Notes under the pieces: model-generated
Databases searched by the model: none
Told to the model about the DNA's origin: nothing
The model's input: only the letters and a program-made list of their open reading frames with translations
Position numbers and translations under genes: made by a program
Shown here: piece after piece, positions 5,526-38,885 of the stretch
How positions within the stretch are numbered: position 1 is the stretch's first letter
Layout: each line of letters starts with the position of its first letter
DNA from: an uncultured bacterium
Lineage (GTDB): Bacteria; CAYJRR01
Assembly: GCA_964372275.1 (NCBI GenBank)
Contig: CAYJRR010000030.1
Location: 1 to 38,961, forward strand
Reading direction: 5' to 3'
Length of the DNA: 38,961 nt

Positions 5526-5541
5526 GAAAGAGCCCTCCGGC

Positions 5542-16785: not shown

Positions 16786-16804
16786 CAGCTACGCAGGGGG
16801 GTTC

Positions 16805-18256: not shown

Positions 18257-18258
18257 CG

Positions 18259-20445: not shown

Positions 20446-20487
20446 CGCGAGCACGGCGCGGGCCGGGGGCCGGACGGAGGAGGTCCG

Positions 20488-21390
20488 GTGATCCTTCGCA
20501 TCGTCTCCAGCGCGATCCTGGGGGTCGCGGCGTTCCTGTTCGTCGTCGGCTCCTACGAATGGTTCGCGCGGCGCCTGCGCGAGGCCACCACCGAATACGT
20601 CGCCTGGATGGTGACGATGTTCGACCGGATGTTCCTCACCGTCACCGCGCGGCAGTGCGTGATCCTGATCGCCGCCAGCACCGTCGGGACCGGGCTGATC
20701 ATGTTCTGGCTCACCGGGGCGTTGAGCGGAGCGACCTGGAAGTGGTTCATCCGGCTCCTCATCATCGGCGTGGCGATGAAGGGACCGTGGATCTTCCCCA
20801 TGGGCTGGTCGCTGCCGCGGAGGATCGTCAACTGGATGTGGCGGCGGCGGGTGAACAAGTTCGACGAGCAGATGCTCGACGGGCTGACCTTCCTCGCGAA
20901 CTCGATGAAGTCGGGGCTGTCGCTGCTGCAGGCGATCGACATGATCGTGCAGGAGCTCCCGAACCCGCTCTCGCAGGAGTGGGCGCTGGTATTGAGTCAG
21001 CAGAAGCTCGGGGTGCGGATCGACGAGGCCCTCGACAACCTGGAGAAGCGGATCGGCTCCGAGGACATCCAGATCGTCTGCACCAGCATCGGCATCCTCC
21101 GCGAGTCGGGCGGCAACCTGGCCGAGGTGTTCGACACCATCGCCTACACCATGCGCGAGCGGCGGAAGGTGGAGGGGAAGATCTCGGCGATGACGGCCCA
21201 GGGGGTGATGCAGGGGATCATCATCATGGCGATGCCGTTCGTCCTGGCGGCCGTCCTCTACGCCATGGATCCGGTCCTGATCGCCCGGTTGTGGCAGACG
21301 GTGCTCGGATGGGTCCTCCTGATCATGATGATGACCCTCCAGTTCGTGGGCGGGTACATCATCAAGAAGGTCGTGACCATCGAGGTCTAG
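20488..21390 (+). CDS. tadB: T2SSF-domain platform protein TadB
   Basis: A 300-aa polytopic membrane protein with the T2SSF domain (LDGLTFLANSMKSGLSLLQAIDMIV...). GTG start preceded by GGAGGAGG. Confidence 0.85.
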   Translation: MILRIVSSAILGVAAFLFVVGSYEWFARRLREATTEYVAWMVTMFDRMFLTVTARQCVILIAASTVGTGLIMFWLTGALSGATWKWFIRLLIIGVAMKGPWIFPMGWSLPRRIVNWMWRRRVNKFDEQMLDGLTFLANSMKSGLSLLQAIDMIVQELPNPLSQEWALVLSQQKLGVRIDEALDNLEKRIGSEDIQIVCTSIGILRESGGNLAEVFDTIAYTMRERRKVEGKISAMTAQGVMQGIIIMAMPFVLAAVLYAMDPVLIARLWQTVLGWVLLIMMMTLQFVGGYIIKKVVTIEV

Positions 21391-22332: not shown

Positions 22333-23322
22333 GTGGGACCTTGGCTCGCGACGCCGTTCGCGGCGGCCGCCATCGCCGTCGCAGTCGGGCCGGAGGACGG
22401 GAAGGCGCTGGCCGACGCGGTCGAGCGCGGGGGCGGCAGCGTGCCGTGGGGGGCGGTCGTCGTCCACCACAGCGGAGACGCCGCGGGATCGGCGGCTTCG
22501 ATCGATCGCTACCAACGGGAGTCGCTCGGCGACCCGGACGGAATCGACCACCACTTCGTGATCGGCAACGGCCTCGGGCTCCCCGACGGCGCGGTGGAGG
22601 TGACGGCGCGGTGGACGCGCGGCTCGATCACTTCGCATCTCTTCCGCGAGTCCGGCCTGCCGCCGGCGGTGTCGATCTGCCTGGTGGGAGACCTCGAGAA
22701 CGCCTCCCCCACCGCCGCGCAACGGGCGGCGCTGTCGCGCCTGATCGCGTCGCTTGCCGGCCGCTTCCGCCTGCCCATCGACGCCGTCCTCCTTCATCGC
22801 GAGGTCGAGGGACGCGGAACGACCTGCCCGGGACGGAAGCTGTCGAAATGGAAGATGCTGGAAGAGGCGGGGCTGCTGCCGGAGCGGGGCCGATCGGTCC
22901 TGGTCGAGCGGGGCGGCTCCGCCGTGAAACTGTTGCTCGGCGAGGCGGTGGTGCAGCGGTGGGAACGACTTCCCGACCGTCCGCACCGCCGGCTTCCGCT
23001 GGGCAGCTTCCCCATCTGCCGGCGCGACGAAGGGGGCGCGTTCGGCCGGACGCTGGTGATCGCCTGGCCGGGTCCCGACGAGATCCATGCCGCGCGCGAT
23101 GCGGGGACTCTCACCCCCAATGACGCCCGGCGCCTGCTCGCCGCGACCAAGACCGGGAGCTGTCCCCCGGACGACACGCCGCTGGGTGGCGAGATCGGAA
23201 TCCACGCCGGTGGGACGTCCTCCGCCGCCGAGGAGAGCGCGTGCGCCGAGCTCGAGGAGCGCGATGCCGATGCCCTGTTCGATGCGGTGCCGCTGGGAAC
23301 CGTCGTCCGGATCGTCGAATAG
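22333..23322 (+). CDS. N-acetylmuramoyl-L-alanine amidase (Amidase_2/PGRP-fold) domain protein with an unknown C-terminal domain
   Basis: VVVHHSGD...HHFVIGNGLG...SICLVGDL...LLHREVEGRGTTCPG matches the Amidase_2 zinc-amidase signature. The ~150-aa C-terminal region has no family I can name. A hydrophobic N-terminus (LATPFAAAAIAVAVG) may be a signal peptide or anchor. Confidence 0.65.
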   Translation: MGPWLATPFAAAAIAVAVGPEDGKALADAVERGGGSVPWGAVVVHHSGDAAGSAASIDRYQRESLGDPDGIDHHFVIGNGLGLPDGAVEVTARWTRGSITSHLFRESGLPPAVSICLVGDLENASPTAAQRAALSRLIASLAGRFRLPIDAVLLHREVEGRGTTCPGRKLSKWKMLEEAGLLPERGRSVLVERGGSAVKLLLGEAVVQRWERLPDRPHRRLPLGSFPICRRDEGGAFGRTLVIAWPGPDEIHAARDAGTLTPNDARRLLAATKTGSCPPDDTPLGGEIGIHAGGTSSAAEESACAELEERDADALFDAVPLGTVVRIVE

Positions 23323-25182: not shown

Positions 25183-26103
25183 CTAAGCCACGGTCGGCCC
25201 GCGGAGCCTGGCGATCTCGTCGCGGACGAGGCGTTCCAACGCGTCGGGGTCGAGCGACCGTGCCGACGCAGGACGCGGGAGGCTTCCCGGGCCGTCCCCG
25301 CACCGAGGCGTATCCGCGGCGGTCGCGATCGGGGGCTCGACCGTGGCCCGCGGCGAGCGCCTCGTCGAGTCGGCGTCTGTGTCGGCGCCCCGCAGCGACT
25401 CCGAGGGACGACTCTGGGAGCCGGCTGCACGGGCGAGGGGCCCGAGTCCCGCGGCCGCGCGCTTCTGGAGGAGCGTCGCGACGTCGGCTTCGGGGAGTCG
25501 GTTGACGCGCCCGAGCTGCCGCGCCGCAAGCTCGATCGTCGCCAGGTGCTCCACCAGCTCGACGCGCAGGTACGCCTGCTCGACGTCGACGCCGACGGCG
25601 ATCACGCCGTGGTTGGCGAGCAACGCCGCGTCGGCGTCGACGAGCGCAGCCGCCAGCCCCTCCTCCAGCGCGGGGCTCCCGGGAAGGGCGTAGCCGACGA
25701 GCGGCGCCCCCGGACCGAGCGAGACGATCGCCTCGGCGAGGATCGGCGTCGTCAGCGCAAGCCCCGCGACGGCGAAGCCGGTGGCGGTGGGAGGATGGGC
25801 GTGCACCACCGCCTTCGCGTCGGCGCGCTCGCGGTAGCAGCGCAGGTGCAGGTGCAACTCCGAGAACGGCTTCCCCGCGGTTCGCTGCCCGTCGAGGAGA
25901 TTCCCGTCCGCCGATAGGAGAAGCACGTCGTCCGCGCCGATCAGGCGCTTGGATACGGCGGTCGGCGTGGCCAGGATCCGCCCGTCGTCGAGCCGGACGG
26001 TGACGTTCCCGTCGTGGTTCGCGGCCCAGCCGCGCTTCCACAAGAGCCTCGAGGCCGATGCGATCGCCTCCCGCAGCCGCTGCTCGTCCGCCGGCAGCGT
26101 CAC
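25183..26103 (-). CDS. Class II aldolase/adducin-family protein (fuculose-/rhamnulose-phosphate aldolase-like) with a C-terminal extension
   Basis: A ~215-aa aldolase core with metal-binding His residues (ELHLHLRCY...VVHAHPP...LANHGVIAVG). A ~90-aa disordered Pro/Ser/Ala/Arg linker follows. A terminal amphipathic helix (LDPDALERLVRDEIARLRG) closes the protein. GTG start in a GTGA overlap with the upstream stop. Confidence 0.85.
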   Translation of the reverse strand: MTLPADEQRLREAIASASRLLWKRGWAANHDGNVTVRLDDGRILATPTAVSKRLIGADDVLLLSADGNLLDGQRTAGKPFSELHLHLRCYRERADAKAVVHAHPPTATGFAVAGLALTTPILAEAIVSLGPGAPLVGYALPGSPALEEGLAAALVDADAALLANHGVIAVGVDVEQAYLRVELVEHLATIELAARQLGRVNRLPEADVATLLQKRAAAGLGPLARAAGSQSRPSESLRGADTDADSTRRSPRATVEPPIATAADTPRCGDGPGSLPRPASARSLDPDALERLVRDEIARLRGPTVA

Positions 26104-26420
26104 GCCCGGCCTCCCGGACCGCGGCGGGCGGCGCCGTCGAGCACCGATCCGTCCTCCATCTCCACCCGGTCGACGACCGCCATCACCACCGCGTGGATCG
26201 GATCGCTCTCCTTCCCCGCAAGCTGGCGCGCGGTGTTCCCTTCGCGCGAACAGAGGACGGTGTCACCGGGTCCGGCGCGGACCGTGTCGACCGCCAGGAA
26301 CAGGCGGCCGGCGTCCTTCCCCTTCGCGTCGATCGGCTGGCAGACGAGGACGATCTTTCCGTCGTAGCAGGCGTGCTTCTCCACCGCGACCGCGTTGCCG
26401 GTGATGCGCGCGAGGATCAC
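26100..26420 (-). CDS. BMC vertex (pentamer) protein, EutN/CcmL/PduN family (BMC-P)
   Basis: VILARITGNAVAVEKHACYDGKIVLVCQPID...GDTVLCSREGNTARQ matches the EutN_CcmL fold. The GTG start overlaps the stop of the upstream BMC-P (GTGA). The rest of track ORF 26100..26588 is Arg-rich extension. Confidence 0.8.
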   Translation of the reverse strand: MILARITGNAVAVEKHACYDGKIVLVCQPIDAKGKDAGRLFLAVDTVRAGPGDTVLCSREGNTARQLAGKESDPIHAVVMAVVDRVEMEDGSVLDGAARRGPGGRA

Positions 26421-26752
26421 GGCCGGTCTCCGCCGGGTTTCGTCCGGGCCTTCCGGGGTCCGTCCGCCAGGTCCGTGGCGTAGATCCCTTCGGCGAAGAT
26501 CTCCTCGGCGATCGCCACCACCGCGGCGTCGACCGGGACGAACGTCTCCGGCAGCGCCAGCGCCGCCTCCCGTCCGCCGACCCACCACACCACCTGTCCC
26601 GGCCCGGCGCTGAAGCGATCGGCCACGACGAACGGTTCTCCCACCGGGAGCATCGTCGTATCGACCGGCTGCGCCAGCAGCAGCTTCACCCCTTCGAGGC
26701 CGGGCGACTTCCGCTCGGCGACGACCGTTCCCAGCACGCGCGCCAGTTCCAT
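26417..26752 (-). CDS. BMC vertex protein, EutN/CcmL family (BMC-P)
   Basis: MELARVLGTVVAERKSPGLEGVKLLLAQPVD...PFVVADRFSAGPGQVVWWVGGREAA. The start ATG lies 23 codons inside track ORF 26417..26821. Confidence 0.8.
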   Translation of the reverse strand: MELARVLGTVVAERKSPGLEGVKLLLAQPVDTTMLPVGEPFVVADRFSAGPGQVVWWVGGREAALALPETFVPVDAAVVAIAEEIFAEGIYATDLADGPRKARTKPGGDRP

Positions 26753-26783
26753 CAGCGGCCCTCCTCGAGACGGTGGCGACGCG

Positions 26784-27362
26784 TCATCGCCGCCCCGTGA
26801 GGTTGGCGACCAGGTCGGCATGCGGCCGGGGGATCAGCTCCACGCCGACGAGGAACCCGTCCTGCTCGGCTCTCGCTTTCGCCGCGGCGACCGCCGCTTC
26901 CAGATCGGCGTGCGGCCCGGTCAGCGTGAAGTAGCCCTTGCCGCCGATCCCGTGGCCGAGGCGGATCTCGATCACCCGCACGTCGGCCGTCTTGGCGGCG
27001 ACGTCGGCGGCGGCGACGGTGGTGGCGAGGGAGAGCATCTCCACGATTGCCAGGGCGTCGACGTCGGGCACCTCGATCCTGCGACCGAGCGCGGCCACGA
27101 CGTCGGGGTGGACTTGCGGGAGGATCATCTGGTTGATCACCGTCGCGCCGCCGAGCGCCTTCCCTTCGGCGAGCGACTCCTCCACCGCCGCCACCTCGCC
27201 GGTGAAGACGAAGAGGTACTTTCCGGAGGAGACCGGCTCGGCGATCCGGACGGTGACCGGCGCGCGCTTGCTGACGGCATCGAGCACGCGCGCGCCGCGC
27301 CCGATGCTCGACAGCTCGAGCAGCGCGAGGGCCGGATCGGAGGACGGGGAGGCCGCGGGCAT
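26784..27362 (-). CDS. Tandem-BMC-domain shell protein (BMC-T)
   Basis: A 192-aa product with two BMC domains (ALALLELSSIGRGARVLDAVSKRAPVTVRIAEPVSSGKYLFVFTGEVAAVEES; ALAIVEMLSLATTVAAADVAAKTADVRVIEIRLGHGIGGKGYFTLTGPHADLEAAV). The start ATG lies 43 codons inside track ORF 26784..27491. Confidence 0.8.
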   Translation of the reverse strand: MPAASPSSDPALALLELSSIGRGARVLDAVSKRAPVTVRIAEPVSSGKYLFVFTGEVAAVEESLAEGKALGGATVINQMILPQVHPDVVAALGRRIEVPDVDALAIVEMLSLATTVAAADVAAKTADVRVIEIRLGHGIGGKGYFTLTGPHADLEAAVAAAKARAEQDGFLVGVELIPRPHADLVANLTGRR

Positions 27363-27433
27363 GAAGACCCCGCAGGATAGCGAAGCGGTCGGGGGAGGTA
27401 AACGAGCGTGCCGCCGGGGTATACTGCGTAGTC

Positions 27434-28537
27434 GTGGCGCACGGGAAGGCGGTGGTCTGGTCCCCGGTGAGCTACGAGCCGGGTCGCCCATGGCTGTGGA
27501 GCCGCCCGATCGACCGCCTGTTCGTCGCCGGCGGCGGCTTCTTCCTCGTCGCGGCCGTCCTCGTGCCGCTTTCGCTGCTGCCGTCGGTCGGCCCTTCGCT
27601 CAACGCGCTGCTGCTGCACCTCTCGGTTCTGGTCAACTACCCGCACTACACCTCCACCTACCAGGTGATCGTCCGCGAGCGGGAGCGCCGGCCCGCAAGC
27701 TTCCGGACGCTCCTCTGGAGCGCCTTTCCGATGGCGGCGCTCCTGGTCGTCGCCGGCCGGTGGCCCGACCTCCTGTGGGGGGTCGTCGTCCGGGGCTACC
27801 TTACCTGGTCGGCCTACCACTACGCCGCGCAGCACTTCGGGATCGCCGCGATGTACTGCGCGCGCGCGGGGACGCCGCTGGGCGCCCGCGAGAAGGGACC
27901 GTTGCAGGCGGCCTTTCTCGGCGTCGGCGGCTTCATGATGCTGATGGCCAACACCGTCGGAGGCGACGCCGACCTGGCCGCTCGCGTCGTGGGGCTGACC
28001 GAAAACGGCGGGGAGGTGCCGATCGCCGGGTTTCCGTCGTGGATGTACGGCGTCGGCCTGGCCCTGGTCGCGGCGAGCGGCGTGGCGTTCGCCGTGGCCG
28101 AGCGGCGGTTCGCCGCCCGCACCGGACGGACCTTCCTGCGCGAGGTCTGGATGTTGTTCGCGACCAACCTCGCCTGGTTCGTCGTTCCGAACCTGCGCCT
28201 GCCGGGGGGAGAGGGTTGGATGTGGCCCGGTCTCGCCCTGTGCCTGTTGGGCCTGCCGCCGTTCTTCCACGGGCTCCAGTACATGGCGGTGACGGGCCAC
28301 CGCAGCCGGACGACCGGTCCGGTCCGTCCGATCTGGCTCTTCGCCGGACTGGTGGCCGCAGGCTATCTGTTGTTCCACGGCCCGGTGCCGCTCCTGCCGG
28401 CGATCGCGCCCGTCGACGCTACACGGGGGATCCTGCTCCTGGTGTCGGTGATCAACCTCCACCACTTCTGGATGGACGGCCTGATCTGGCGTCGGGCGCG
28501 CGTGGCGGCCCTCCCCGCGTCGCCGCCCGTGTCGTGA
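27434..28537 (+). CDS. Polytopic membrane protein of unknown function (about eight TM helices)
   Basis: A 367-aa product rich in Trp/Tyr/His-containing hydrophobic helices (LNALLLHLSVLVNYPHYTSTYQ; WSAYHYAAQHFGIAAMY; LLLVSVINLHHFWMDGLIWRR). It is divergent from the BMC-T gene. The opposite-strand ORF 27137..28465 is Arg-rich junk. Confidence 0.55.
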   Translation: MAHGKAVVWSPVSYEPGRPWLWSRPIDRLFVAGGGFFLVAAVLVPLSLLPSVGPSLNALLLHLSVLVNYPHYTSTYQVIVRERERRPASFRTLLWSAFPMAALLVVAGRWPDLLWGVVVRGYLTWSAYHYAAQHFGIAAMYCARAGTPLGAREKGPLQAAFLGVGGFMMLMANTVGGDADLAARVVGLTENGGEVPIAGFPSWMYGVGLALVAASGVAFAVAERRFAARTGRTFLREVWMLFATNLAWFVVPNLRLPGGEGWMWPGLALCLLGLPPFFHGLQYMAVTGHRSRTTGPVRPIWLFAGLVAAGYLLFHGPVPLLPAIAPVDATRGILLLVSVINLHHFWMDGLIWRRARVAALPASPPVS

Positions 28538-28540
28538 TCC

Positions 28541-29335
28541 CTAGCGGCTGATGCCGACGCTGGGCCCGCCCGAGCCGGAGTTGGCGGGGCCGATCGTCGG
28601 AGGACGGCGCGGCAGCGGCGCCGTCACCACGGTCGTGTCGCCGCGTGCGACCTGCGATCCGGTGGAACGGTTGGTCGGGGCGAACCAGCCCGAGGTCTTG
28701 GAGCCGGTGAGCCAATCGAAGGCGCCCGCGGCGATGGGGAGCACGCTGCCGATGAACGACGCGGCGCCGGCCACCGTAGCGACCGTCGCGAGTACGCCGG
28801 CGGTGATTCCGACGGCGGCCCCTGCAGCCGCGACGGCCGGAAACGCGACCACCGCCAGTCCCCCGACGACTGCCGCCAGGGCGACGCCCGACGCGACGGC
28901 GGTCAGACCCGTGCGCCACTTTTCCGGCGTCGAGGCGTTCGGGTCCCGGATCGTGGTGTAGGCGACGGCGGCGTCGGCGCCGGCGAAGATCGCGTTGAAG
29001 ATGGGATTGATCCGGCCGAACGCCGCCGCGGCCTTTCCGGCGGAGGTGGAGATCCGGACGGCGAGCGGAATGCCGCGCTTCGCCCACTGGCGCGCGGCCG
29101 CGCGCCGGACCTGTCTCGAGGGGAACGAAGGACGGGTGACCCGTTCGATCCCCTTGAGGCTGTACTCGGTGGCGTCCTTCACGTCGTCGACGTTGGAGAG
29201 GCCGTTCCCGACGTCCTGGACCACCTGCAGCTCGGCCGGAAGCGACGGTTCCGGACGCTCCTGCGCCAGCGCCAGGACCGGCTCGGTGATCATCGTGACG
29301 GCGAGTCCGAGTGCGACCAGCGTGCGGTAGACCAT
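28541..29335 (-). CDS. Secreted or membrane-associated hypothetical protein
   Basis: An N-terminal signal-like segment (LVALGLAVTMITEPVLALAQE). A polar middle region. A C-terminal Ala/Gly/Val-rich hydrophobic block (about three helices). It is the last gene of the AldDH operon. A G9 tract lies 4 nt upstream of the ATG on the coding strand. Confidence 0.5.
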   Translation of the reverse strand: MVYRTLVALGLAVTMITEPVLALAQERPEPSLPAELQVVQDVGNGLSNVDDVKDATEYSLKGIERVTRPSFPSRQVRRAAARQWAKRGIPLAVRISTSAGKAAAAFGRINPIFNAIFAGADAAVAYTTIRDPNASTPEKWRTGLTAVASGVALAAVVGGLAVVAFPAVAAAGAAVGITAGVLATVATVAGAASFIGSVLPIAAGAFDWLTGSKTSGWFAPTNRSTGSQVARGDTTVVTAPLPRRPPTIGPANSGSGGPSVGISR

Positions 29336-29523
29336 GACTCCCCCCCCCGCCTTGTCTTACTCCACCAAGTGTGCCACTCCGGACGCATCTTAAGGTATGG
29401 GAATTTCAAGGAAACTTGATGTCGGGCTGGGGCGGCTCGCCCCCGGAGTTGGGCGGGGGGCGGAGACGATCGAACCCAGCGGCGGGTGGGGGCGATGCCC
29501 CGCCGGAACGGCGCCGAACCCCG

Positions 29524-30969
29524 CTACACGATTCGGAAATACTCTTTCAGCGTGCAGCGCCGTTCGCGGGTGAAGTTGCGGACGGTGGTCAGTCCCTCGC
29601 CGGTGGGGCTGGCGATGGTGAAGGAGGTGTAGCCCTCTCCGCCGTAGCCGAGGCCGGCGAAGTTGGGGGCGTTTTTCACGTAGATCGAGCAGTCCATCAC
29701 GCGCGCCATGGTGTGCAGCGCCTCGATGTTGCGCGAGTACATCACCGCCGTGTGGCGGTAGCCGTGCTCGACGCGCTTGGCCATGGCGATCCCTTCGGCG
29801 GCATCGCGCACCCGCACCAGCGGCAGCACCGGCATCAGCATCTCGTTCTGCACGAACGGGTGGGTCTCTCCGTCGACCTCGACCAGGATGGTGCGCGGAT
29901 CGCCCGGCACGGGATGGTCGATCCGCTCCAAGATGAGCCGCGCGTCCTTGCCGACCCAATCCTTGTTCGGGTGGCCGTCCTTGAGCACGACCGACTCCAG
30001 GCGCTTGGTGAGCGCCGGCGGGAGGAGATAGGCGCCGTGCTCGGTCATCTTCTGCTTGAGCGTGTCGGCGATCCTGTCGACCGCCAGGATCTCCTTCTCC
30101 GCGGTGCAGATGATGTTGTTGTCGAGCGAGTGTCCGGCGACGCAGCCCGCCGCCGCGCGGTCGAGGTCGGCCGTCTCGTCGACGACGGCCGGCGGGTTCC
30201 CGGGTCCGCCGGCGATCGTCTTCTTGCCGGAGGCCATCGCCGCCTTGACCACCGCCGGCCCGCCGGTGACGACGAGCAGCTGGATCCCCTTGTGCTTCAT
30301 CAGGGCGGTGGCCGAGTCGAGCGTCGGCTCGGCGATCATCGTCAGCACGTTCGCCGGTCCGCCCGCGCGCACCGACGCCTCGTTCATCAGGTTGACCGTC
30401 TTCGCGCAGCACCCTTTGGCGTAGGGGTGCGGGTTGAAGACGACGCTGTTGCCGCCGGAGACCATCCCGATCCCGTTGTTGATGATCGTCTCGGTCGGGT
30501 TGGTGGTGGGGGTGATCGCGCCGATCACGCCGTACGGGGCGCGCTCCACCAGCATCAGTCCGTCATCGCCGGAGTAGGCGATCGGCTCCAGGAACTCCGG
30601 GCCGGGGGTCTTGTCGATCACCAGCCGGTTCTTGATCCGCTTGTCGGAGGCTCGTCCGAGGCCGGTCTCCTTCGGCGCCCATTCGGCGAGGAGATCGACG
30701 TGATCGCGGAGCGTCGACCGCATCTCCTCGATCATCCGCTTGCGGACCTCCAGCGGCGTGCGGGCGAGCTCGCCGTGGGCCTGCTTCGCCGCCGCAATCG
30801 CCTCGTCGAGGGTCTGGAAGACGCCGCCGTTCCGGTAGTCGATCTCGTCCGGCGCGACCGGGGTGCGCGGGCGGGCCGCCGGGGCCTGGCCCTCGGTCGC
30901 CAGACGCGAGACGACGTTCTCGACGATCTGCTGGATCTGGGCGCGGTCGAGGGGCAGGGCGGCGGGCAT
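29524..30969 (-). CDS. CoA-acylating aldehyde dehydrogenase (PduP/EutE-like) with an N-terminal encapsulation peptide
   Basis: Aldehyde dehydrogenase fold with the catalytic Cys region (DNNIICTAEKE) and a Gly-rich NAD site (VVTGGPAVVKAAMASGKK). The N-terminal amphipathic helix (LDRAQIQQIVENVVSRL) is followed by a Pro/Ala linker. Confidence 0.9.
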   Translation of the reverse strand: MPAALPLDRAQIQQIVENVVSRLATEGQAPAARPRTPVAPDEIDYRNGGVFQTLDEAIAAAKQAHGELARTPLEVRKRMIEEMRSTLRDHVDLLAEWAPKETGLGRASDKRIKNRLVIDKTPGPEFLEPIAYSGDDGLMLVERAPYGVIGAITPTTNPTETIINNGIGMVSGGNSVVFNPHPYAKGCCAKTVNLMNEASVRAGGPANVLTMIAEPTLDSATALMKHKGIQLLVVTGGPAVVKAAMASGKKTIAGGPGNPPAVVDETADLDRAAAGCVAGHSLDNNIICTAEKEILAVDRIADTLKQKMTEHGAYLLPPALTKRLESVVLKDGHPNKDWVGKDARLILERIDHPVPGDPRTILVEVDGETHPFVQNEMLMPVLPLVRVRDAAEGIAMAKRVEHGYRHTAVMYSRNIEALHTMARVMDCSIYVKNAPNFAGLGYGGEGYTSFTIASPTGEGLTTVRNFTRERRCTLKEYFRIV

Positions 30970-30975
30970 CGGTGG

Positions 30976-31284
30976 CTACGCTCCGCCCGCTTTCTGGTAG
31001 AGGCGCCCCTCGCCGGTCTCGATCTCGTCGACGATCGCCATGATCACCGCGTCGCAGGGGCGGTCCTTGGTGGCGGCGGTCTGGCGCGCCGAGGAGCCGG
31101 TGGCGTAGAGCACCACCTCGCCGACCCCGGCGCCGACCGAATCGATCGCCACCACCATCCCCGAGCCGTCGACGAGCCCGCCGTCTTTCGTCGCGAGGTT
31201 CTTCACGACGTGGAGGCGCAACCCCTCGAGCTTTTCGTCCTTCTGGGTGGCGATCACCGTCCCGACGATGCGTCCGAGCTGCAT
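30976..31284 (-). CDS. BMC vertex protein EutN/CcmL/PduN family (BMC-P), third paralog
   Basis: MQLGRIVGTVIATQKDEKLEGLRLHVVKNLATKDGG...VVLYATGSSARQ. Confidence 0.85.
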   Translation of the reverse strand: MQLGRIVGTVIATQKDEKLEGLRLHVVKNLATKDGGLVDGSGMVVAIDSVGAGVGEVVLYATGSSARQTAATKDRPCDAVIMAIVDEIETGEGRLYQKAGGA

Positions 31285-31295
31285 CGGGACGGACC

Positions 31296-31610
31296 CTACT
31301 TCTTCCCGCCGACCACGCGCGCCGCGCCCGCCCCCGCGCGGCCGAGCGGCAGCGCGTCCTCGATGGCGTCGTGCGGCCGCGGAATGACGTGGACGCTGAC
31401 CAGCTCGCCGACGCGTTGGGCTCCCTTGGCCCCGGCCTCGGTGGCGGCCTTCACCGCCGCAACGTCGCCCCTCACGATCGCGGTCACGTAGCCGCCGCCG
31501 ATCTTTTCGTAGCCGATCAGCTCGACCTTCGCGGCCTTCACCATCGCGTCCGAGGCCTCGACCATCGCGGCGAAACCCTTGGTTTCGATCATCCCGAGCG
31601 CTTCTGCCAT
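31296..31610 (-). CDS. BMC hexamer shell protein (BMC-H, PduA/CcmK-like)
   Basis: [60 protein letters not shown]...VHVIPRPH. This is the canonical BMC domain. An AGAGGGA RBS sits 9 nt upstream. The start ATG lies 68 codons inside track ORF 31296..31814. Confidence 0.9.
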
Positions 31611-31624
31611 TGTCGTTCGTCCCT

Positions 31625-32248
31625 CTATTTCTCTTTGCCGGTGAGGTTTTTCAGCGCGTTGACCGCCGCCTCCGCCGCGCTGTCGATCTCGGCCTCGGGG
31701 CCGCCGAGGTAGAGACGGCCGAAGGCGCCGAAGAGCGTGGCGTCGATGAGCGTGACGTCCGCCGCCTTGAGCGCTTCGTTGGCGGCGTAGGCGATGTAGC
31801 CCGCCGGCTCGCACTCCAGGATGAAGAGCGACTGGCCGGCGATCAGCATCGACCCGAAACGGATCCGGTTGATCAGCTGCGTGTGGTACTCCTCGACGCC
31901 GCGGATGATGGTGTTGGAGACGATCCGCGGCTTGATCCGGTCGTGCTCGGTCACCTCGAGCTTTCCGAGGATCGCCTGGCCGGCGGCCACCACCTCGCCC
32001 TGTTCGGCGTGGTGCAGCTCCAAGAGGCCGAAGGCGCGCTCCACGACCATGATCGCGGGGGCCGCCTTGGTCGCCTTGAGCCCCGTGTCGAGCAGGCGGT
32101 TGATCGCCATACCCGGCGCCGTCTCGATGAAGAGCGACGCGTCGTGCGCGACCGGGAGGAAGCCGCGGGCGGTGGTCCCGATGAAGGCCGAGAGCTGTGG
32201 CTGGAGGCTGTCGAGAAAGACGTAGGTGCGCAGGGTTACGTCGGCCAT
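31625..32248 (-). CDS. Tandem-BMC-domain shell protein (BMC-T)
   Basis: A 207-aa product with two BMC-like domains ([45 protein letters not shown]...; [57 protein letters not shown]...). Confidence 0.85.
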
Positions 32249-32337
32249 GAAGGGGCGACGCTACCCGCCCGCGCGCGTCGCTGTCAACGAGGGGCGGCGC
32301 TCGTTGCCCGCCGGCGGGCCGGAGCGAGTCGATCGGG

Positions 32338-34980
32338 TCACTCCCGGAGCATCTGCGCGAAGCGGGCGGCGACCTCCGGTCGTTCGGTGAGGACGGTGGC
32401 CCAGGCGCCGAGGCAGGCGGCGTAGCGCTCGGCGGACATGCCCGACTGGCGGATCGTCTCGGCGAGGTCGCCGCCGGACATCACCGCCTTCATGAGGCGG
32501 ACGTATTCGCCAAGACTCTTCACCGGCTGGTCGGGGAGGATCGGCTCGGCGTCGAGGGGGAGCCCCGCGGAGGCGGGCGCAGGGGCGGCGGCGGGTGTAG
32601 GGGCGGGTGCGGGTGCGACGGCGTTCGCGAGGCGGTCCTGCACCAGCGCGCGGAGCTGCTCGTCGGCGCGGCGGGCGATCAGGGCGGCGGCTTCGGCTTC
32701 GCGGACGGCCGCGTTCTGCTTTTCGGCCGCGAGGGCGGAGACGGCGGCGCGCCAGCTGGTCGCTTCGGCGCGCGCGCGGGCGCGGATGCGCACGTCGCCG
32801 ACCATTCGCAGCGATTCGTCGATCCGTTCGCAGCTCGACCGGAAGGGGGCGGCGGAGGTCTCCTTCTTCGGGAGCGACGCCAGCAGGTGCGCGTGGAAAT
32901 TTCGCCAGCGGCGCTCGAACCGCTCCAGCGCCTGCGCCAGGCCGGTGTCGGTCGGATTCTGGTTGAAGCGCGGCACGAGGTCCTCGACGAACCGGCCGAG
33001 CGCGCCGAGGCGCTTCACGACGTCGGCGTCGCCGGTCTCGACGGCGTCGAAGAGGCTGTCGGCGAGCGGCGCCGTCTCCTCGGAGCGGATCCGGTCGAGC
33101 ACCCGACCGACGAGCTCGTAGAGCCGGCCGGGGTCGGCGCGGTACTGGACCCGGAACGAGGCCGCGGCGTCGGTCCCCTTGAGCGGCGTCCCCGGGAGGT
33201 CGCGGTCCCGCGCCTCGAGCAGCTCCGACGGGAATCCGGAGAGCGCGACCAGCACCGCATCGCGCTCGTCGATCCGGGTTCGGAAGCGATCCCAGAGCGC
33301 TTCGAAGACCGCGGTTCGCGCCGGCGTCGGATCGATCAGCAGGACGGCGATCCGGGAGGCCAACGTCAGGCGCGCCTCGGTCGCCGACCGGTCCCAGATC
33401 CCCATCAGGATCTGGATGGCGCGGAGGTCGGTCGCGCGACCTCCCGGATTGCACCGGGCGTGGAGCACGAGGAGTGCCCGGAGCGTCGGATCGGCCGTCA
33501 TCTCGTCGGCGACCAGCTCGTCGAGGAGCGCGCCCGCCTCGCGGCTGCGGGCGTTGAGGAGCCACCGCTCGAATCCGGGCCGCATGGCGCAGGCGGCCCT
33601 CTCCTCGGGCCGCAGGCCGCCGATCGCCGACGTCGCGGCCGCGGCGAACTGGGACACCTCGACGTCGTCGCGCGGTCCGGCGGCCGGGTCGGCCGGCGGC
33701 TCGGTCGCCCAGGTGAGGAGGTCGAGCACCCGGTCGAGTCCGAGCGCGCGCGCGCTCCCCATGACGAACCGGCCGAGGAAGGCGCGGCAGGGCTGGTCGA
33801 AGTCGGCGAATCGAGCGTCGCCGCGCAGCCATCGGAACGCGGCCTCGCGGTACGCGTCGTCGGCGCGCAGCGTCCCCTGGAGCAACGCTTCGAGGGTGAC
33901 CACCGGTACCGGGTGTCGAAGTCCGCGCAGAACCGCGATCCGCAGCTCCTCCGGCCCGGAGGCGAGCCACCGGGCCACACGCGGGCTGCGGCGGCGCGCG
34001 AGCGACGTCAGCGCCAGCTCCAGCTTCGGCGAGACCCCTTCGTCGACGACGGCGGCGAGCGTCGCTTCGTGTCCGAGGGCCAGCGCGCAGGAGAACGCCA
34101 GGTCGGGATCGGGCCATTCGAGCCCTTCGCGCAACGGCCCGTCGAGCTCACTCGGATCCTCCGGGTCGGCGAGCGAGCAGGCGGCGGCGGCCCACGGGCG
34201 GAGGAGCGGATCCTCGAGCGCGGGCCGTGCGACGTCGGCGACGCGCCGGAGGTCGTCCGGACCGAGGCGTGGCACGAAGCCGTCGGTCGTGGGCACCTCG
34301 CGCATTCGCCACGAGCCCAGCGCCATCGCCGCCTCCAGCGCCAGGCCGATCGGCTCCGCGGCGTGCAGGCTCTTGCGCGCGGACTCGACGCGAGGCTCGG
34401 TCACGCGCCCCAGGCGGAGAAGCGCGATCGACGCCAAGGCCGCGGTCAGTTCGTCGGGGCTCGAGGCGGCGATCGTCTCCAACAGATCGTCCGCGCCGGG
34501 CGTGAAGGGTCCCTGCGGTCCGCTGCCCGCGAAGGCGAGCGGCTCCTCCCGCAGGGGCAGCGCCTGCATCCAACCGTCTTCAACCACCTCGGCCCATCCG
34601 GGGAGGAGCAGGTAACCTTCGCAGAAGCGCGCCTCCTCCACCCGCACGGCGATCCGGTCGGCCTGCCGCGCGTGGATCGCCGCCAGCGATTCGAGCTGCG
34701 ACGGCGTGAGGGACTGCAGCCGACGCTCGAGCGTCAGGCGGGTGGCGCCGTCGGCCTTCAGCATCCGGGCGACGCCGTACGACGCGGCGGGGACGAGCTT
34801 GCAGCCGCACGAGCGGCAGAAGGTCCCGGTCGACCAGCCGGCGCACCACGGGCAGCGCACCTCCTCGACGAAGGCCCCTCCGCAGGCGACGCAGGGTCCG
34901 GGGCGCCCGGTATCGCCGTCCGCCGGGCCGCTCCCCGTCGGGCTCGCTCCGCACGACTCGCATCGGAAGCGGGAGATCAC
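32338..34980 (-). CDS. Large alpha-helical protein with an N-terminal double zinc-ribbon, paralogous to the upstream gene
   Basis: GTG start in a GTGA overlap with the upstream stop. N-terminal CxxC...CxxC...CxxC...CxxC cluster (CESCG, CVACGG, CPWCAG, CRSCGC). About 800 aa of helical sequence follow. The C-terminal ~60 aa ([56 protein letters not shown]) are homologous to the C-terminus of gene 34977..36542. The remaining ~900 nt of track ORF 32338..35886 is Arg-rich, probably non-coding extension. Confidence 0.55.
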
Positions 34981-36542
34981 GTCCGCTCCGGTCCCGGCCC
35001 GCGCAGGATCTGGCCCATGCGCACCGCCAGCTCGGGCCGGCTCTTCAGCACCCGTCCCCAGGCCGACATGCACCGGGCGTAGGCCGAGAAGTCCATCCGG
35101 TGCGCGACCAGCAGCTCGTCGACCGATCGGCCGGTGGCGAGATCGTCGAGGAAGGCGAGGTAGCGGCGCAGCGTCGGAAGCGGCTCGGCCGGCAACACCG
35201 ACTCGTCCTCGAGAGGAAGGCCGTCGCGCTCCTGTGCCGCCGCGTCCTTCCGCCGTTCGATCCGATGCGTGTCGTCCTTCGCCGGGGACCGCGGCCGGCC
35301 GGGGTCGGTCGGAGCGTTCGCCCGCGCGCGATCGATCTCCGCCTCGAAGCTCTCCAGGACGACGAGGAGGGCGTCCCGCTGTCCGGGTTGCTCCTGGTAC
35401 CGCTTCCAGAACGCCTCGAAGAAACGGCGGCGGTCGAGCAGGAATCCTCGGCTCCAGCCGGCGGCCAGGGCACGCGCCATGGCCGGTCGGCCTCCTTCGG
35501 AAGCGCGGTCCCAGATCCCGAGCGCCAGGTCGAGCGCCGTCGGCGGCTCCACCACGCCGAGCCGGCCGGCGAGGGCGTGCATCGCGGCGAGCGCCCGGAA
35601 CAGCCCTTCCGCGACGCTCGGACTCGGGTCGGCCGCCCAGTCGTCGAGGACCGACGCCTCCTCGGGCCCATGGGCGGCGAACAGCCACAGCGTGAACTCT
35701 TTTCCGAACAGGCGGGCGCGTTCCTCGGGCCGTGCGCGCTTCAGCAGATGGGTCGCAGCCCGGACGATCGGACGGGTTGTGTCGTCGAAGCGGGGCGGCT
35801 CGCCGTCGACCCACGCCGCGCGCCGCAACGCGGAGAGCGCCTGGCCGGCGTCGATCGAGGCCTCCCGCGCCCGGGCTTCGAGCCAACGCCCCAGGAGGAT
35901 CGTTCGTTCGGGCGGAAGCCGGTCGAGCGTTTCGCGGTCGAACGCGATCTGCAGAAGCTCCCTCCGGACGTCGGCGTCCCCGGGATCGCGGTCGAGCAGG
36001 CGATCGACCTCTGCCGCGCGGTCCTCGCCGGACGGGGGGTTGGCGGCCGGGCGCGCGGCGGACGCCTCCCGCACGGCGATGTCAGGGTGGCGGGAGGCGA
36101 GCGAGTCGACGGTGGCGCGCTGCGCGGTGGTCAACCGGAGATCCGCGATCCGCAGGTAGGCGTCGAGGCGGGTGGTGGGAAGCGGATGGCTGCTCATCTG
36201 ACGGACCAGCCATTCGAACTCCTCGGGATCGGGCGCCCCCCGGAACGGGAGACGGCGGAGCGCCTCGATGAGAAGGGCGGCCCGCTTGGGATTGTCGCGG
36301 GCCACGTCGACCATGCGGCGGAAGGCGATCTCCCCTCCCACGTCGACCCGCGCCACCAGCTCCGGGATGCGTTCGCGGACCCCTTCGGTCTCGAGCGCCA
36401 CCGGCAGCTGCGCGAGGAGGCGCGCAATCTCGTCCTGGCTCACGGTGACGAGCGCCCGATCCCCTCCCGCGCGGAGGCGCTCGGCCAGCTCGCGGATCTC
36501 CCCGTCGGCGGGGCGCACGGCCTGCGGCATCTCGCGGCCCAT
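34977..36542 (-). CDS. Alpha-helical protein of unknown function, shorter paralog of the zinc-ribbon protein
   Basis: A 521-aa product. It shares internal blocks with the downstream gene (LALGIWDRASEGG / [13 protein letters not shown]; ALLVVLESFEAEIDRAR / [17 protein letters not shown]). It shares the C-terminal domain (LRRYLAFLDDLATGRSVDELLVAHRMDFSAYARCMSAWGRVLKSRPELAVRMGQIL). An alternative ATG start is at 36530. Confidence 0.55.
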   Translation of the reverse strand: MGREMPQAVRPADGEIRELAERLRAGGDRALVTVSQDEIARLLAQLPVALETEGVRERIPELVARVDVGGEIAFRRMVDVARDNPKRAALLIEALRRLPFRGAPDPEEFEWLVRQMSSHPLPTTRLDAYLRIADLRLTTAQRATVDSLASRHPDIAVREASAARPAANPPSGEDRAAEVDRLLDRDPGDADVRRELLQIAFDRETLDRLPPERTILLGRWLEARAREASIDAGQALSALRRAAWVDGEPPRFDDTTRPIVRAATHLLKRARPEERARLFGKEFTLWLFAAHGPEEASVLDDWAADPSPSVAEGLFRALAAMHALAGRLGVVEPPTALDLALGIWDRASEGGRPAMARALAAGWSRGFLLDRRRFFEAFWKRYQEQPGQRDALLVVLESFEAEIDRARANAPTDPGRPRSPAKDDTHRIERRKDAAAQERDGLPLEDESVLPAEPLPTLRRYLAFLDDLATGRSVDELLVAHRMDFSAYARCMSAWGRVLKSRPELAVRMGQILRGPGPERT

Positions 36543-36551
36543 GATCTCAGA

Positions 36552-37070
36552 TCAGAACGACCAGCGCGAGATCCAGCGCTGCGGCGTGAACGGCGGAATC
36601 GGCAACGGCGTGAGCAGCTCCCCTTCGCCGGGGCGCAGCAGCGACCGGAAGTCGAGCTTCTCGCCGGTGCGGTAGTAGTGCTCGAGATAGCGGTAGTCGG
36701 CGTGCCACCAGTCGGAAACCCAGCGGTCGAGGTCGTGGACGCCGACGTCGTGGAGGAGTTGCAGGCTGTATCGGGTGGCGTCCCTCTCGTACACGCGAAT
36801 CTTCCGCAGCTCCTCCTCCCCCTTGCCGATCGCAAGGTCGGCGCCCAGGCGCCGGTACTCCTCGGAGAGGTTCCACTGCACGGTATGGCCGAACAGGTGG
36901 ACGAGCACGAACAGCGCGCTGTCGAGCTCCTGGTCGAAGTCGACCGCGATCGTCATCCCGTCGAAGTCTCCGGTGTTCGGATCGAGGACGTCGGAGATCG
37001 AGACGGGGAGCCCGTACCGGTCTTCGACGTGCTTCTCGACCCGGGCGTACGCGTCGCGGAAGGTGGTCAC
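36552..37070 (-). CDS. Hypothetical protein (172 aa)
   Basis: The composition is non-Arg-biased and rich in Trp/Tyr/His (VLVHLFGHTVQWNLSEEYRR; WVSDWWHADYRYLEHYY). It sits 9 nt upstream of the next gene. The GTG start is taken from the track. Confidence 0.5.
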   Translation of the reverse strand: MTTFRDAYARVEKHVEDRYGLPVSISDVLDPNTGDFDGMTIAVDFDQELDSALFVLVHLFGHTVQWNLSEEYRRLGADLAIGKGEEELRKIRVYERDATRYSLQLLHDVGVHDLDRWVSDWWHADYRYLEHYYRTGEKLDFRSLLRPGEGELLTPLPIPPFTPQRWISRWSF

Positions 37071-37112: not shown

Positions 37113-38885
37113 TCAGCGGTAGAGGTAGGCGGCTCCGCTGTCGGGCGCGCCATCGCCTGTGTCGAGCGGGTCGACGCCGGTACCCTCCGAGTCCTCCAAG
37201 AAGGCGCCGATCGCCACGACGTCGCCCGAGACGGTCGCCGGAAGGCCGAACCAGTCCCCCGCGCCTGTGTTCGACGCCTTGAGGTAGGCATGCTGGCTCC
37301 AGCTCCCGTCGGTGCGCAGGAAGAGGTAGGCGGCGCCGCTGTCGAGCGAAAGATCGTTCGCCTGGTTCCCGTCGAGGCCGGTGGCATTCGAATCCTCGGC
37401 GTAGCTCCCGACGACGGCGGCATCGCCGGAGATCGAGACCTCGGCGAAGTAGTCCTCGACTCCGGTGTTGGAGGCCTTGAGGTAGGCCTGCTGGATCCAC
37501 GTGGTTCCGGTCCGGACGAAGACGTAGGCGGCGCCGCTGTTGGTGGGCGAGGAATCCCCCTGATCGCCGTTCACACCGGTGGCGCTGGAGTCTTCGAAGT
37601 AGGAGCCGACGATCGCGGTGTTCCCGGAGAGATCGACGCTGACTCCGAACTGATCGCTCCCGCCCGTGTTGGACGGCTTCAGGTAGGCCTCCTGGATCCA
37701 CGCGGTGCCGGAGCGCACGAAGACGAAGGCCGCACCGGACTCCGGAGCGGTCTCGTTCGCGGCGGAGTTGACGCCGATCGTGCCCGAGTCTTCGCCCCAG
37801 GCCCCGACCAGTGTGGTCTCTCCGGAAACAGCGACGCCGAAGCCGAAGTGGTCCCCGGCATCCGGATCGGGCGCCTTGAGATAGGCCTGTTGGAGCCAAG
37901 CGGTTCCGTTCCGTACGAAGACGTACGCCGCGCCGGCCTCGGCGGCCGAGTTGTCGGATTGGGCGGAAGGGTTCGCCGCCGGGAGTCCGGAATCCTCTCC
38001 CGGAGCGCCGATGACGACGACATCGCCCGAGACGCCGACGCTGCCGAGGTCTCCGAACACGTCGTCGATCCCCGGATTCGACGCCTTCAGATACGCCTGC
38101 TGCGTCCAGACGCCGCCGGTCCGGACGAAGACGTAGGCGGCGCCGCTGTTCGAGAGCCCGTCGTTCGTCTGATCGCCGTCGACGCCCGACGACCCGGAGT
38201 CTTCGTAGAGGGACCCGACGACGATCGTTTCATCGTCGATTGCGACGCTCTGCCCGAACTGATCGCCGGCTTCCGCGTTCGACGCCTTGAGCAGCGCCGT
38301 CTGGCTCCAGACGCCTTCCCGGCGCTCGAAGACGTAGACCGCGCCGCTGTCCTGCGCCGTCGTGTCTTCGAGCGGGGTGCCGACGGCCATCGTATCGCCG
38401 GAGACGGCGACGCTGAAACCGAACAGGTCGCCGTTGCCGGGGTTGGAGGCCTTGAAGAATACCGGCGAGGGCCGCAGCTCGGCCGCCCGGGTCACGGTGA
38501 TTTCGTAGGTCTGCGACGTCCCCCCCCGGCCCTTCACCACGACCGCGACGACGTTCGGGCCTGGCGCCAACGGGATCGGTTCCGACGCGATCCCCGAGAC
38601 CTCGCCCGATTCCTGGACCCGGAGCGTGGCGGACGACGATTCGGTGACGGCGAGAATCCGTACCGAAGTGGCGAACGGACCGACCGAGGCGGTGTACTCG
38701 GTCGTCGCCGGATCGAACGGTGGGACAAGCGCTTCGGAAGGGTTCACCAGGCGCAAGGCGGCGAGCCTCGTCGACACCAGATCGGCATCCCCTTGCCGCT
38801 TGCAGCCGGCCGCGATCGCCGCGAGGGCGCCCGCGGCGGCGAGGGAACGGACGACCGAGAGTCGGGCGGTCGGGCTGGGATCCAC
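37113..38885 (-). CDS. Lipoprotein with a cadherin-like beta-sandwich domain and eight FG-GAP-type beta-propeller repeats
   Basis: Lipobox (LAAIAAGCKRQ). A cadherin-like domain (LAALRLVNPSEALVPPFDPATTEYTASV...YEITVTR). Eight ~50-aa repeats with the pattern GAAYVFVRxGxxWxQQAYLKASNxGxxDxFGxSVxxSGDxxVVGAxxEDS. Confidence 0.8.
   Translation of the reverse strand: MDPSPTARLSVVRSLAAAGALAAIAAGCKRQGDADLVSTRLAALRLVNPSEALVPPFDPATTEYTASVGPFATSVRILAVTESSSATLRVQESGEVSGIASEPIPLAPGPNVVAVVVKGRGGTSQTYEITVTRAAELRPSPVFFKASNPGNGDLFGFSVAVSGDTMAVGTPLEDTTAQDSGAVYVFERREGVWSQTALLKASNAEAGDQFGQSVAIDDETIVVGSLYEDSGSSGVDGDQTNDGLSNSGAAYVFVRTGGVWTQQAYLKASNPGIDDVFGDLGSVGVSGDVVVIGAPGEDSGLPAANPSAQSDNSAAEAGAAYVFVRNGTAWLQQAYLKAPDPDAGDHFGFGVAVSGETTLVGAWGEDSGTIGVNSAANETAPESGAAFVFVRSGTAWIQEAYLKPSNTGGSDQFGVSVDLSGNTAIVGSYFEDSSATGVNGDQGDSSPTNSGAAYVFVRTGTTWIQQAYLKASNTGVEDYFAEVSISGDAAVVGSYAEDSNATGLDGNQANDLSLDSGAAYLFLRTDGSWSQHAYLKASNTGAGDWFGLPATVSGDVVAIGAFLEDSEGTGVDPLDTGDGAPDSGAAYLYR
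37116..38435 (-). repeat. Intragenic tandem repeat (~150-bp period, eight copies) encoding the FG-GAP blades
   Basis: A periodic recurrence of ...gcgccgctgt...gtaggc...cttgaggtaggcctgctg... is visible in the DNA. It corresponds to the YVFVR / AYLKASN peptide repeats. Confidence 0.6.

Follow-up and report, generated by a model that had tools for sequence, protein, structure and literature searches.

In an uncultured bacterium (GenBank assembly GCA_964372275.1, contig CAYJRR010000030.1), a shell operon for a bacterial microcompartment (BMC) is preceded on its own strand by three consecutive genes, g172, g521 and g880. Our analysis of the whole stretch of 38,961 nucleotides (nt), hereafter the window, suggests that this segment is probably, though with little to spare, two unrelated things in a row: g172, and a scaffold-like pair formed by g521 and g880, with an adjacency to the BMC genes that is specific to this lineage. 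The original prediction, made from the DNA letters, had treated the three genes as one module. This unity did not hold up, as g172 homologues never adjoined relatives of g521 or g880 in the contexts examined, the subfamily of g880 is usually preceded elsewhere by a small zinc-ribbon gene, and the three genes were found together in no other genome examined.

Arrangement and coding status of the three genes

The genes, two of which belong to subfamilies that we call type A and type B, are:

36552..37070, minus strand: g172, 172 aa, GTG start; predicted zincin-like fold, large unannotated family
34977..36542, minus strand: g521, 521 aa; shortened type B paralog without a zinc ribbon
32338..34980, minus strand: g880, 880 aa, GTG start within the GTGA overlap with the g521 stop; type A

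Their layout was confirmed as first described: 9 nt separate the g172 stop from the g521 ATG, g521 and g880 overlap by GTGA, and g880 ends 89 nt upstream of the ATG of BMC-T, on the strand that it shares with the BMC operon. An alternative g521 ATG at 36530, four codons later, is the NCBI start and yields 517 aa. All three proteins are called in a public NCBI assembly (P0002 for g172, P0001 for g521 and P0122 for g880).

Long overlapping open reading frames (ORFs) occur in all six frames across this 69-75% GC region, which could be taken to mean that the chosen frames are high-GC artefacts and that the segment is not coding as described. However, the codon-usage check proposed with the original prediction gave coding-like values. 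GC content at third codon positions (GC3) was 0.925 for g172, 0.885 for g521 and 0.91 for g880 (that is, 0.89-0.93, with 0.91-0.94 in the BMC genes), and GC content at second positions (0.39-0.56) was like that of the Pfam-confirmed BMC genes, as is usual for protein-coding regions when the genome has 69% GC. Homologues of all three proteins, with length and domains conserved, are present in other genomes, and the predicted structures are confident. Artefactual frames are thus essentially excluded by the coding signal, the homologues and the structures.

Consistent with the original prediction, none of the three proteins could be placed in a known family: scans against Pfam, NCBIfam, PADLOC and PHROGs gave no family, and nothing meaningful came back when PDB sequences were searched with profiles of g172, of type A and type B, and of the C-terminal domain that g521 and g880 have in common.

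Wide distribution and zincin-like predicted fold of g172

A word-indexed search (E<=1e-3) found 1044 homologues of g172, placing it in a family of more than 1000 clusters. The 120 matches listed were 63-79% identical to g172 and nearly all 171-200 aa long, belonged to Myxococcota, Planctomycetota and unclassified metagenome bins, and contained no Pfam domain. g172 itself matched no Pfam family at E<=0.1, no NCBIfam family at E<=1 and, with a 61-sequence profile, no PDB sequence at E<=10. The AlphaFold2 model built from the 61-sequence alignment (predicted local distance difference test (pLDDT) 94, predicted template modelling score (pTM) 0.90) consists, in order, of an N-terminal helix, three short strands, a long helix with H58-L-F-G-H62, and further helices. 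This predicted fold is of the zincin type, and its closest structural group is ImmA/IrrE/PrpR, with moderate similarity (template modelling (TM) score ~0.4, 13-14% identity).

36885..36899, minus strand: HLFGH motif of g172 (H58, H62), on helix 49-68 of the model

Residues H58, L59, F60, G61, H62 and E95 are invariant across the 61 sequences, with E95 located on model helix 85-108, 33 residues past H62. Where HExxH has its catalytic Glu, the same alignment shows Leu throughout. Together, H58, H62 and E95 would form a candidate metal-binding triad, and we infer that g172 is an independent, widely conserved cytoplasmic protein that most likely binds metal through these residues. Because the catalytic Glu is replaced by Leu, its action may be that of a non-canonical hydrolase or, alternatively, that of a pseudo-protease which senses a ligand or a metal.

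In its predicted fold g172 is similar to ImmA/IrrE (PprI) (Peptidase_M78, COG2856) and to the sensor domain of Mycobacterium tuberculosis PrpR. It differs from ImmA/IrrE in that it stands alone at 172 aa, has the motif HLFGH without the catalytic Glu rather than HExxH, matches neither Peptidase_M78 nor any other Pfam or NCBIfam profile, and has no fused or adjacent helix-turn-helix (HTH)/XRE partner in any context examined. We do not class g172 as an M78 peptidase, although its predicted fold is of that kind and a metal site is probable.

The genes around g172 homologues differ from genome to genome. L001 had a peptidase S9 with a metallophosphatase, L002 a short-chain dehydrogenase with an AP endonuclease, L016/L017 an acyl-CoA-binding protein and two unrelated secreted proteins ahead of gyrB, and L018 unrelated genes. 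In none of these four other genomes did BMC genes or relatives of g521 and g880 stand beside the homologue. L016, a Myxococcota metagenome-assembled genome, was tried as a conserved trio (g172 homologue, 263-aa gene and overlapping 874-aa gene) and dismissed, the latter two being unrelated secreted or membrane proteins. In the same contig the g172 homologue lies near a second, unrelated 172-aa protein without a Pfam domain (3476..3994 and 5261..5779), and it adjoins the acyl-CoA-binding protein and a 4HBT thioesterase. Together with the best structural match, the coenzyme A (CoA)-binding regulator PrpR, the neighbours in this single context provide a lead towards a CoA-related ligand for g172.

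g880 and the type A family

The architecture of g880, for which the AlphaFold2 model has a pLDDT of 81.7, is as follows:

34795..34980, minus strand: double zinc ribbon (residues 1-62), CxxC pairs C7/C10, C30/C33, C43/C46 and C55/C58
32875..34788, minus strand: helical head and HEAT-like alpha-solenoid (residues 65-702)
33133..33780, minus strand: block common to g521 (residues 401-616), by BLASTP
32629..32853, minus strand: single long helix (residues 710-784), in the model
32536..32628, minus strand: Pro/Ala-rich flexible linker (residues 785-815; pLDDT <50 at residues 783-806)
32341..32535, minus strand: C-terminal four-helix domain (residues 816-880), by model and profile search

The double zinc ribbon that had been read from the sequence is thus present, with four CxxC pairs within residues 1-62. 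C43, C46, C55 and C58 are nearly invariant among homologues, and short strands are predicted for this region in the model. The Pfam DZR profile matched six of ten type A family members below threshold (best E 0.0014) and did not match g880. Similarly, the tandem helix-turn-helix repeats of g880 qualify as a HEAT-like alpha-solenoid, and the HEAT_2 profile gave below-threshold matches in three of ten homologues (best E 0.011), with none in g880 itself. The helix at residues 710-784 is possibly a coiled coil, and g880 may oligomerise through it.

A word search found eight homologues of g880. A pattern scan built from the six closer sequences and applied to one genome per species located seven type A loci, all in Acidobacteriota. 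Full-length type A proteins share a double zinc ribbon, a conserved helical module directly after it (YGAARMLKxAGVDRF…), a HEAT-like alpha-solenoid, a low-confidence Pro/Ala linker and a four-helix C-terminal domain; the 75-residue single helix was noted for g880 within this architecture. The most conserved part is the double zinc ribbon with the following helical module (~residues 1-121). Relative to known HEAT/ARM solenoid scaffolds with DZR (PF12773; HEAT_2, PF13646), the Pfam matches of the g880 family are all below the gathering threshold, and the combination in g880 with the 75-residue helix, the Pro/Ala linker and the C-terminal four-helix domain is an architecture that has not been described.

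We examined 12 distinct type A loci from Myxococcota, Planctomycetota and Acidobacteriota (L003, L004, L007-L014, L019 and L022). By tblastn, none had BMC-H, BMC-T, BMC-P or aldehyde dehydrogenase (AldDh) genes in the available flanks. In 11 of the 12, across all three phyla, a gene for a small paralog of the zinc-ribbon head (183-237 aa) lies directly upstream of the type A gene. It is the only conserved neighbour, and the two genes look like a conserved two-gene cassette. The downstream genes differ in every lineage. The small genes upstream of type A are:

L003, 9279..9992: small zinc-ribbon gene
L004, 9443..9994: small zinc-ribbon gene
L007, 6370..6954: small zinc-ribbon gene
L008-L014 and L022: further small zinc-ribbon genes

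No such gene was found in the window, where g521 occupies the corresponding position. The tblastn alignments of the small proteins run slightly past the g880 start, in a frame overlapping the g521 coding region; we judged this to be alignment run-on and not coding.

g521, type B and the age of the paralogy

BLASTP confirmed that g521 and g880 are paralogs, with 31% identity over 230 aa (E 7e-17) and 38% identity over 74 residues at their C-termini (E 4e-13). g521 consists of three blocks:

36063..36542, minus strand: N-terminal domain (~residues 1-160), type B-specific
35244..35897, minus strand: middle block (residues 216-433; GIWDR and LVVLESFEAEIDRAR), matching g880 residues 401-616 at E 7e-17
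34980..35222, minus strand: C-terminal domain (residues 441-521), matching the g880 C-terminus at E 4e-13 and the domain profile at 3e-26

A word search with g521 returned only g521 itself; its orthologues surfaced in an exhaustive profile search with the C-terminal domain (below). All three blocks of g521 have counterparts in P0155 (916 aa), P0156 (1016 aa) and P0152 (1148 aa), none of which has a zinc ribbon. The g521 N-terminus is 39-45% identical to those of P0155, P0156, P0152 and P0166 and has no match in type A, while the middle block is 54-57% and the C-terminal domain 54-60% identical to the type B orthologues. g521 is thus closer to the type B proteins than to g880 (31-38% identity). 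Relative to full-length type B proteins it has lost ~330 residues of disordered sequence between the first two blocks and a further stretch ahead of the C-terminal domain.

Because g521 matches type B far better than it matches g880, we conclude from these sequence comparisons that the two genes are members of two anciently diverged subfamilies and not the product of a recent tandem duplication. Type A and type B together make up a rare, undescribed family of large all-alpha proteins. The proposal that the downstream copy had acquired ~350 residues and a zinc ribbon has to be turned around, since the zinc-ribbon form is the widespread architecture and g521 is a shortened member of a subfamily whose full-length proteins have 916-1148 aa.

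The shared C-terminal domain

For the C-terminal domain we built a profile from the last ~80 residues of seven sequences and searched 1.84 billion representatives exhaustively. The domain was found in 272 representative proteins at E<=1e-3, of which 83 were at E<=1e-10. In g880 it comprises helices 823-834, 839-845, 850-866 and 868-879 (pLDDT 84-94), and an hhalign comparison of the type B and type A versions gave a probability of 99.2. The similarity, whose significance had been left as a question, is therefore firm, and a profile search of the six-frame translation found exactly two copies in the window. Among 159 proteins re-scored locally, the domain ended <=15 residues from the C-terminus in 148, and 46 of these 159 domain-bearing proteins were 750-950 aa long, like type A. 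At least two copies were present in 11 of the 159, among them small stand-alone proteins with two copies (one from an Actinomycetota bin) and a protein of 570 aa that has five, with low-complexity linkers in between. Proteins with tandem domains (2-5 copies) included P0211, P0213, P0201, P0235 and P0223; P0275, a distant multi-copy relative, had a Pfam DUF6620 match below threshold. No Pfam or PDB sequence match was found for the domain. The shared C-terminal region is thus real, and this ~65-aa helical domain, found in 272 representative clusters, is new and undescribed.

Neither g521 nor g880 matched a catalytic family in any library searched. Most likely they serve as scaffolds or adaptors without enzymatic activity, and the GTGA overlap would give translationally coupled production. 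We infer a joint function, in which they would either bind one another or dock on one common partner. The tethered C-terminal domain would mediate docking, while further binding surfaces would come from the solenoid and the zinc ribbon.

The BMC locus next to the three genes

Downstream of g880, the window contains a complete BMC locus of the HO type (Haliangium ochraceum type; Sutter et al. 2021) at 25183..32248 on the minus strand. The function and cargo of this type are called enigmatic in PMC8217296. The locus and the genes within it are:

31625..32248, minus strand: BMC-T, first gene of the HO-type shell operon (Pfam BMC)
31296..31610, minus strand: BMC-H (Pfam BMC)
30976..31284, minus strand: BMC-P (Pfam EutN_CcmL)
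29524..30969, minus strand: AldDh (Pfam Aldedh)
28541..29335, minus strand: secreted 264-aa protein, no Pfam match; interrupts the locus
27434..28537, plus strand: 367-aa multi-pass membrane protein, no Pfam match; interrupts the locus
26784..27491, minus strand: second BMC-T
within 26417..26821 and 26100..26588, minus strand: two more BMC-P
25183..26103, minus strand: class II aldolase

Similar to the HO-type locus of PMC8217296, that of the window has BMC-T, BMC-H, BMC-P and AldDh followed by BMC-T, two BMC-P and a class II aldolase; unlike HO-type loci, it is broken by two non-BMC genes (the 264-aa secreted and the 367-aa membrane protein). The excerpts of that catalogue make no mention of proteins like g172, g521 or g880. 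An exact sequence match to the window's BMC-H was found elsewhere only on a 1.2-kb contig.

We also asked the reverse question in 80 metagenome loci with a BMC-T 52-73% identical to that of the window, 30 of which extended more than 3 kb upstream of it; 14 of those 30 had the T-H-P-AldDh order. Relatives of g172, g521, g880 or seven other type A/B proteins were found in none of the 80, so that related T-H-P-AldDh loci, unlike the window, lack these genes. Taken with the four g172 and 12 type A contexts, the proposed BMC association is not supported for g172 and for type A, both of which have widespread homologues without BMC linkage; the remaining support concerns type B in a single further contig, discussed below. 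Adjacency to the BMC operon is most likely lineage-specific gene order and not a general BMC association.

The 89-nt gap after g880 contains a promoter-like element:

32258..32287, minus strand: TTGACA-N18-TAGCGT, ending 9 nt before the BMC-T ATG

It was spotted by eye and then tested, a generic promoter and terminator scan having found nothing relevant. The element occurs once in the window, with 0 occurrences expected by chance, and once in L023, a 12-kb contig of GCA_040960215.1 with a related operon (9206..9235, plus strand), where it ends 10 nt before the BMC-T ATG and the spacer has diverged. None of the other 103 loci has it. In the window its -35 part coincides partly with an inverted repeat, CAACGAG-N8-CTCGTTG (32285..32306). 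Judging from position and sequence, the element looks like the BMC operon's own promoter, from which a nearly leaderless BMC transcript would be made.

Weighing a role in the microcompartment against other explanations

Several points weigh against a reading of the segment as two unrelated things with an incidental BMC neighbour. In L023 the type B gene P0155 (5785..8535) lies on the same strand as a BMC-T/H/P/AldDh operon and ~700 nt upstream of it, so the adjacency is not unique to our contig. The three full-length type B proteins, P0155, P0156 and P0152, each carry three TV(R/M)T(L/M)L(R/S)SL(D/E) (TVRTLLRSLDTVR-like) motifs. The sample comprised four g172 contexts and 12 type A contexts, some with short flanks, and the absence of BMC genes near type A applies to the gene flanks. 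Finally, the proposed non-enzymatic scaffold role derives from fold class, and any partner, ligand or activity of g172, g521 and g880 would be hypothetical.

The motifs are of interest for their likeness to encapsulation peptides, which are described in PMC12339742 as short helical domains joined via a disordered linker. Two helices resembling such peptides were observed in the window, both joined by Pro-rich or disordered linkers: an amphipathic helix LDRAQIQQIVENVVSRL (…AQIQQIVENVVSRL…) at the AldDh N-terminus (30850..30969), and another, LDPDALERLVRDEIARL (…DALERLVRDEIARL), at the aldolase C-terminus (25183..25260) after a long disordered linker. The triple motifs of type B are the only conserved islands in its disordered region (18% Pro, 13% Glu) and also its most amphipathic windows, with hydrophobic moments of 1.1-1.9 (1.5-1.95 for the AldDh and aldolase peptides), and they share the h-xx-hh-xx-h pattern of those two peptides. 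They differ from encapsulation peptides in being internal rather than terminal. The motif was not found in the window, where g521 keeps only a degenerate EVDRLLDRD. In g521 and g880 a disordered linker leads into helices at the C-terminus, which make up a folded four-helix domain and not a terminal single helix. The original prediction had proposed to check homologues for encapsulation-peptide-like termini; triple motifs of this kind were seen, internally, only in the longer type B relatives and not in g521 or g880. By its sequence, the full-length type B pattern would look like that expected of a multivalent scaffold bearing encapsulation peptides. Like CsoS2 and CcmN-like scaffolds, it places short conserved amphipathic helices, here three, in Pro/Glu-rich disorder; unlike them, it has no sequence homology to CsoS2 or CcmN, and its type A relatives have no neighbouring BMC genes.

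CsoS2 and CcmN bridge cargo and shell in carboxysomes. By the same token g521 and g880, or at least type B, could be a scaffold or assembly factor of this HO-type lineage, in which the amphipathic helices or the tethered C-terminal domain bind the shell and bridge it to cargo. We regard this as unlikely. It would fit the position of the pair on the same strand directly upstream of BMC-T with an 89-nt gap, the place of P0155 upstream of an 83-89% identical operon in L023 (BMC-T 89%, BMC-H 88%, BMC-P 83%, AldDh 86%), the triple motifs with hydrophobic moments overlapping those of the AldDh and aldolase peptides, and the enigmatic standing of HO compartments mentioned above. However, g521 lacks the triple motifs, BMC genes are missing around the 12 type A loci, and type A/B proteins are missing from all 80 related BMC-T loci, including the 14 T-H-P-AldDh loci with more than 3 kb of upstream sequence. 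L023 is moreover a close relative, as the AldDh identity indicates, so the order of type B and BMC genes may have been inherited rather than selected. A 114-aa opposite-strand gene intervenes there between the type B gene and BMC-T, so that the two are not transcribed together there, and the promoter-like element precedes BMC-T in both genomes. At the corresponding place L023 has type B alone, without g172 and g880. The second type B contig, L104 (P0156, 4671..7721), ends 63 nt past the gene and has in common with L023 only a divergently transcribed upstream neighbour. In addition, small proteins, one of them actinomycetal, carry the folded four-helix C-terminal domain in tandem. A lineage-restricted BMC role for g521 and g880 is accordingly something we hold to be improbable, though credible. 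The fullest form of this idea, in which the family is a lineage-specific structural component of the HO-type BMC, with type B as a multivalent disordered scaffold whose TVRTLLRSLDTVR-like helices would bind the shell or condense cargo and with the C-terminal domain recruiting both paralogs, seems to us a shade less likely still.

A regulatory role is doubtful to a greater degree. Here the zinc ribbon would bind nucleic acid or a transcription factor, the solenoid would sense or sequester a partner, and the pair would control neighbouring genes, in the window possibly the BMC operon. The conservation of the zinc ribbon and helical module above all other parts of type A, the duplication of this head as a separate small upstream protein in 11 of 12 loci and the inverted repeat over the promoter-like -35 are what such a regulator might show, but profile scans detected no DNA-binding domain such as HTH, g521 has no zinc ribbon, and the differing downstream genes of type A in each lineage leave no conserved regulatory target. 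Insertion of the three genes beside the BMC locus as a mobile or horizontally acquired module, also raised originally, is very improbable. The region at 32-36 kb has a slightly raised GC content (0.73-0.75 vs 0.67-0.70 in the BMC genes) and g172 and g880 are lacking at the corresponding place in L023, yet the flanks showed no direct or inverted repeats beyond short matches expected by chance, and neither an integrase or transposase nor an adjacent tRNA was found. PHROGs and PADLOC gave no matches, GC3 resembles that of the neighbouring genes, and the three genes travel together in no other genome examined. We thus favour, if only just, the reading of the segment as g172 followed by an unrelated g521/g880 pair.

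Other features of the window

The gene directly upstream of g172 (37113..38885, minus strand) encodes a secreted protein of 590 aa that combines a cadherin-like domain with seven FG-GAP repeats; these repeats are seen in the DNA as 107-nt repeats with 198-201-nt spacing (37247..37950). Further away are:

15958..21390, plus strand: Tad/Flp-type pilus cluster with RcpC/CpaB, secretin, a 728-aa fused ParA-like/T2SSE ATPase and a T2SSF protein
22333..23322, plus strand: 329-aa protein with N-acetylmuramoyl-L-alanine amidase and L,D-transpeptidase (YkuD) domains
5906..6003, plus strand: ARAGORN call of a tRNA-Gly(GCC), 98 nt, inside a long high-GC3 ORF (5506..7752, plus strand)

The unusual length of the tRNA call and its position inside a likely gene suggest that it is a false positive.

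Implications

Among BMCs, the HO shell serves as the principal model for structural and engineering work, and we know of no established native cargo or assembly factors for it. If type A/B proteins were indeed a BMC component, they would be BMC scaffolds of a new class, belonging to the shell system on which BMC engineering relies most. The microcompartment angle is the only route to such a higher impact; on present evidence a general link is improbable, and for the genes of the window the link is weak. Independently of it, our findings bring out three undescribed things: a very widespread family (more than 1000 clusters) with a zincin-like predicted fold and an invariant HxxxH…E but no catalytic Glu, the ~65-aa C-terminal helical domain of about 270 protein clusters, for which Pfam has no model, and a rare family of large zinc-ribbon/solenoid proteins in two anciently diverged subfamilies. 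Since the zincin-like fold, the zinc ribbon and the solenoid are variants of known themes, their value is modest and lies mainly in family definition and annotation.

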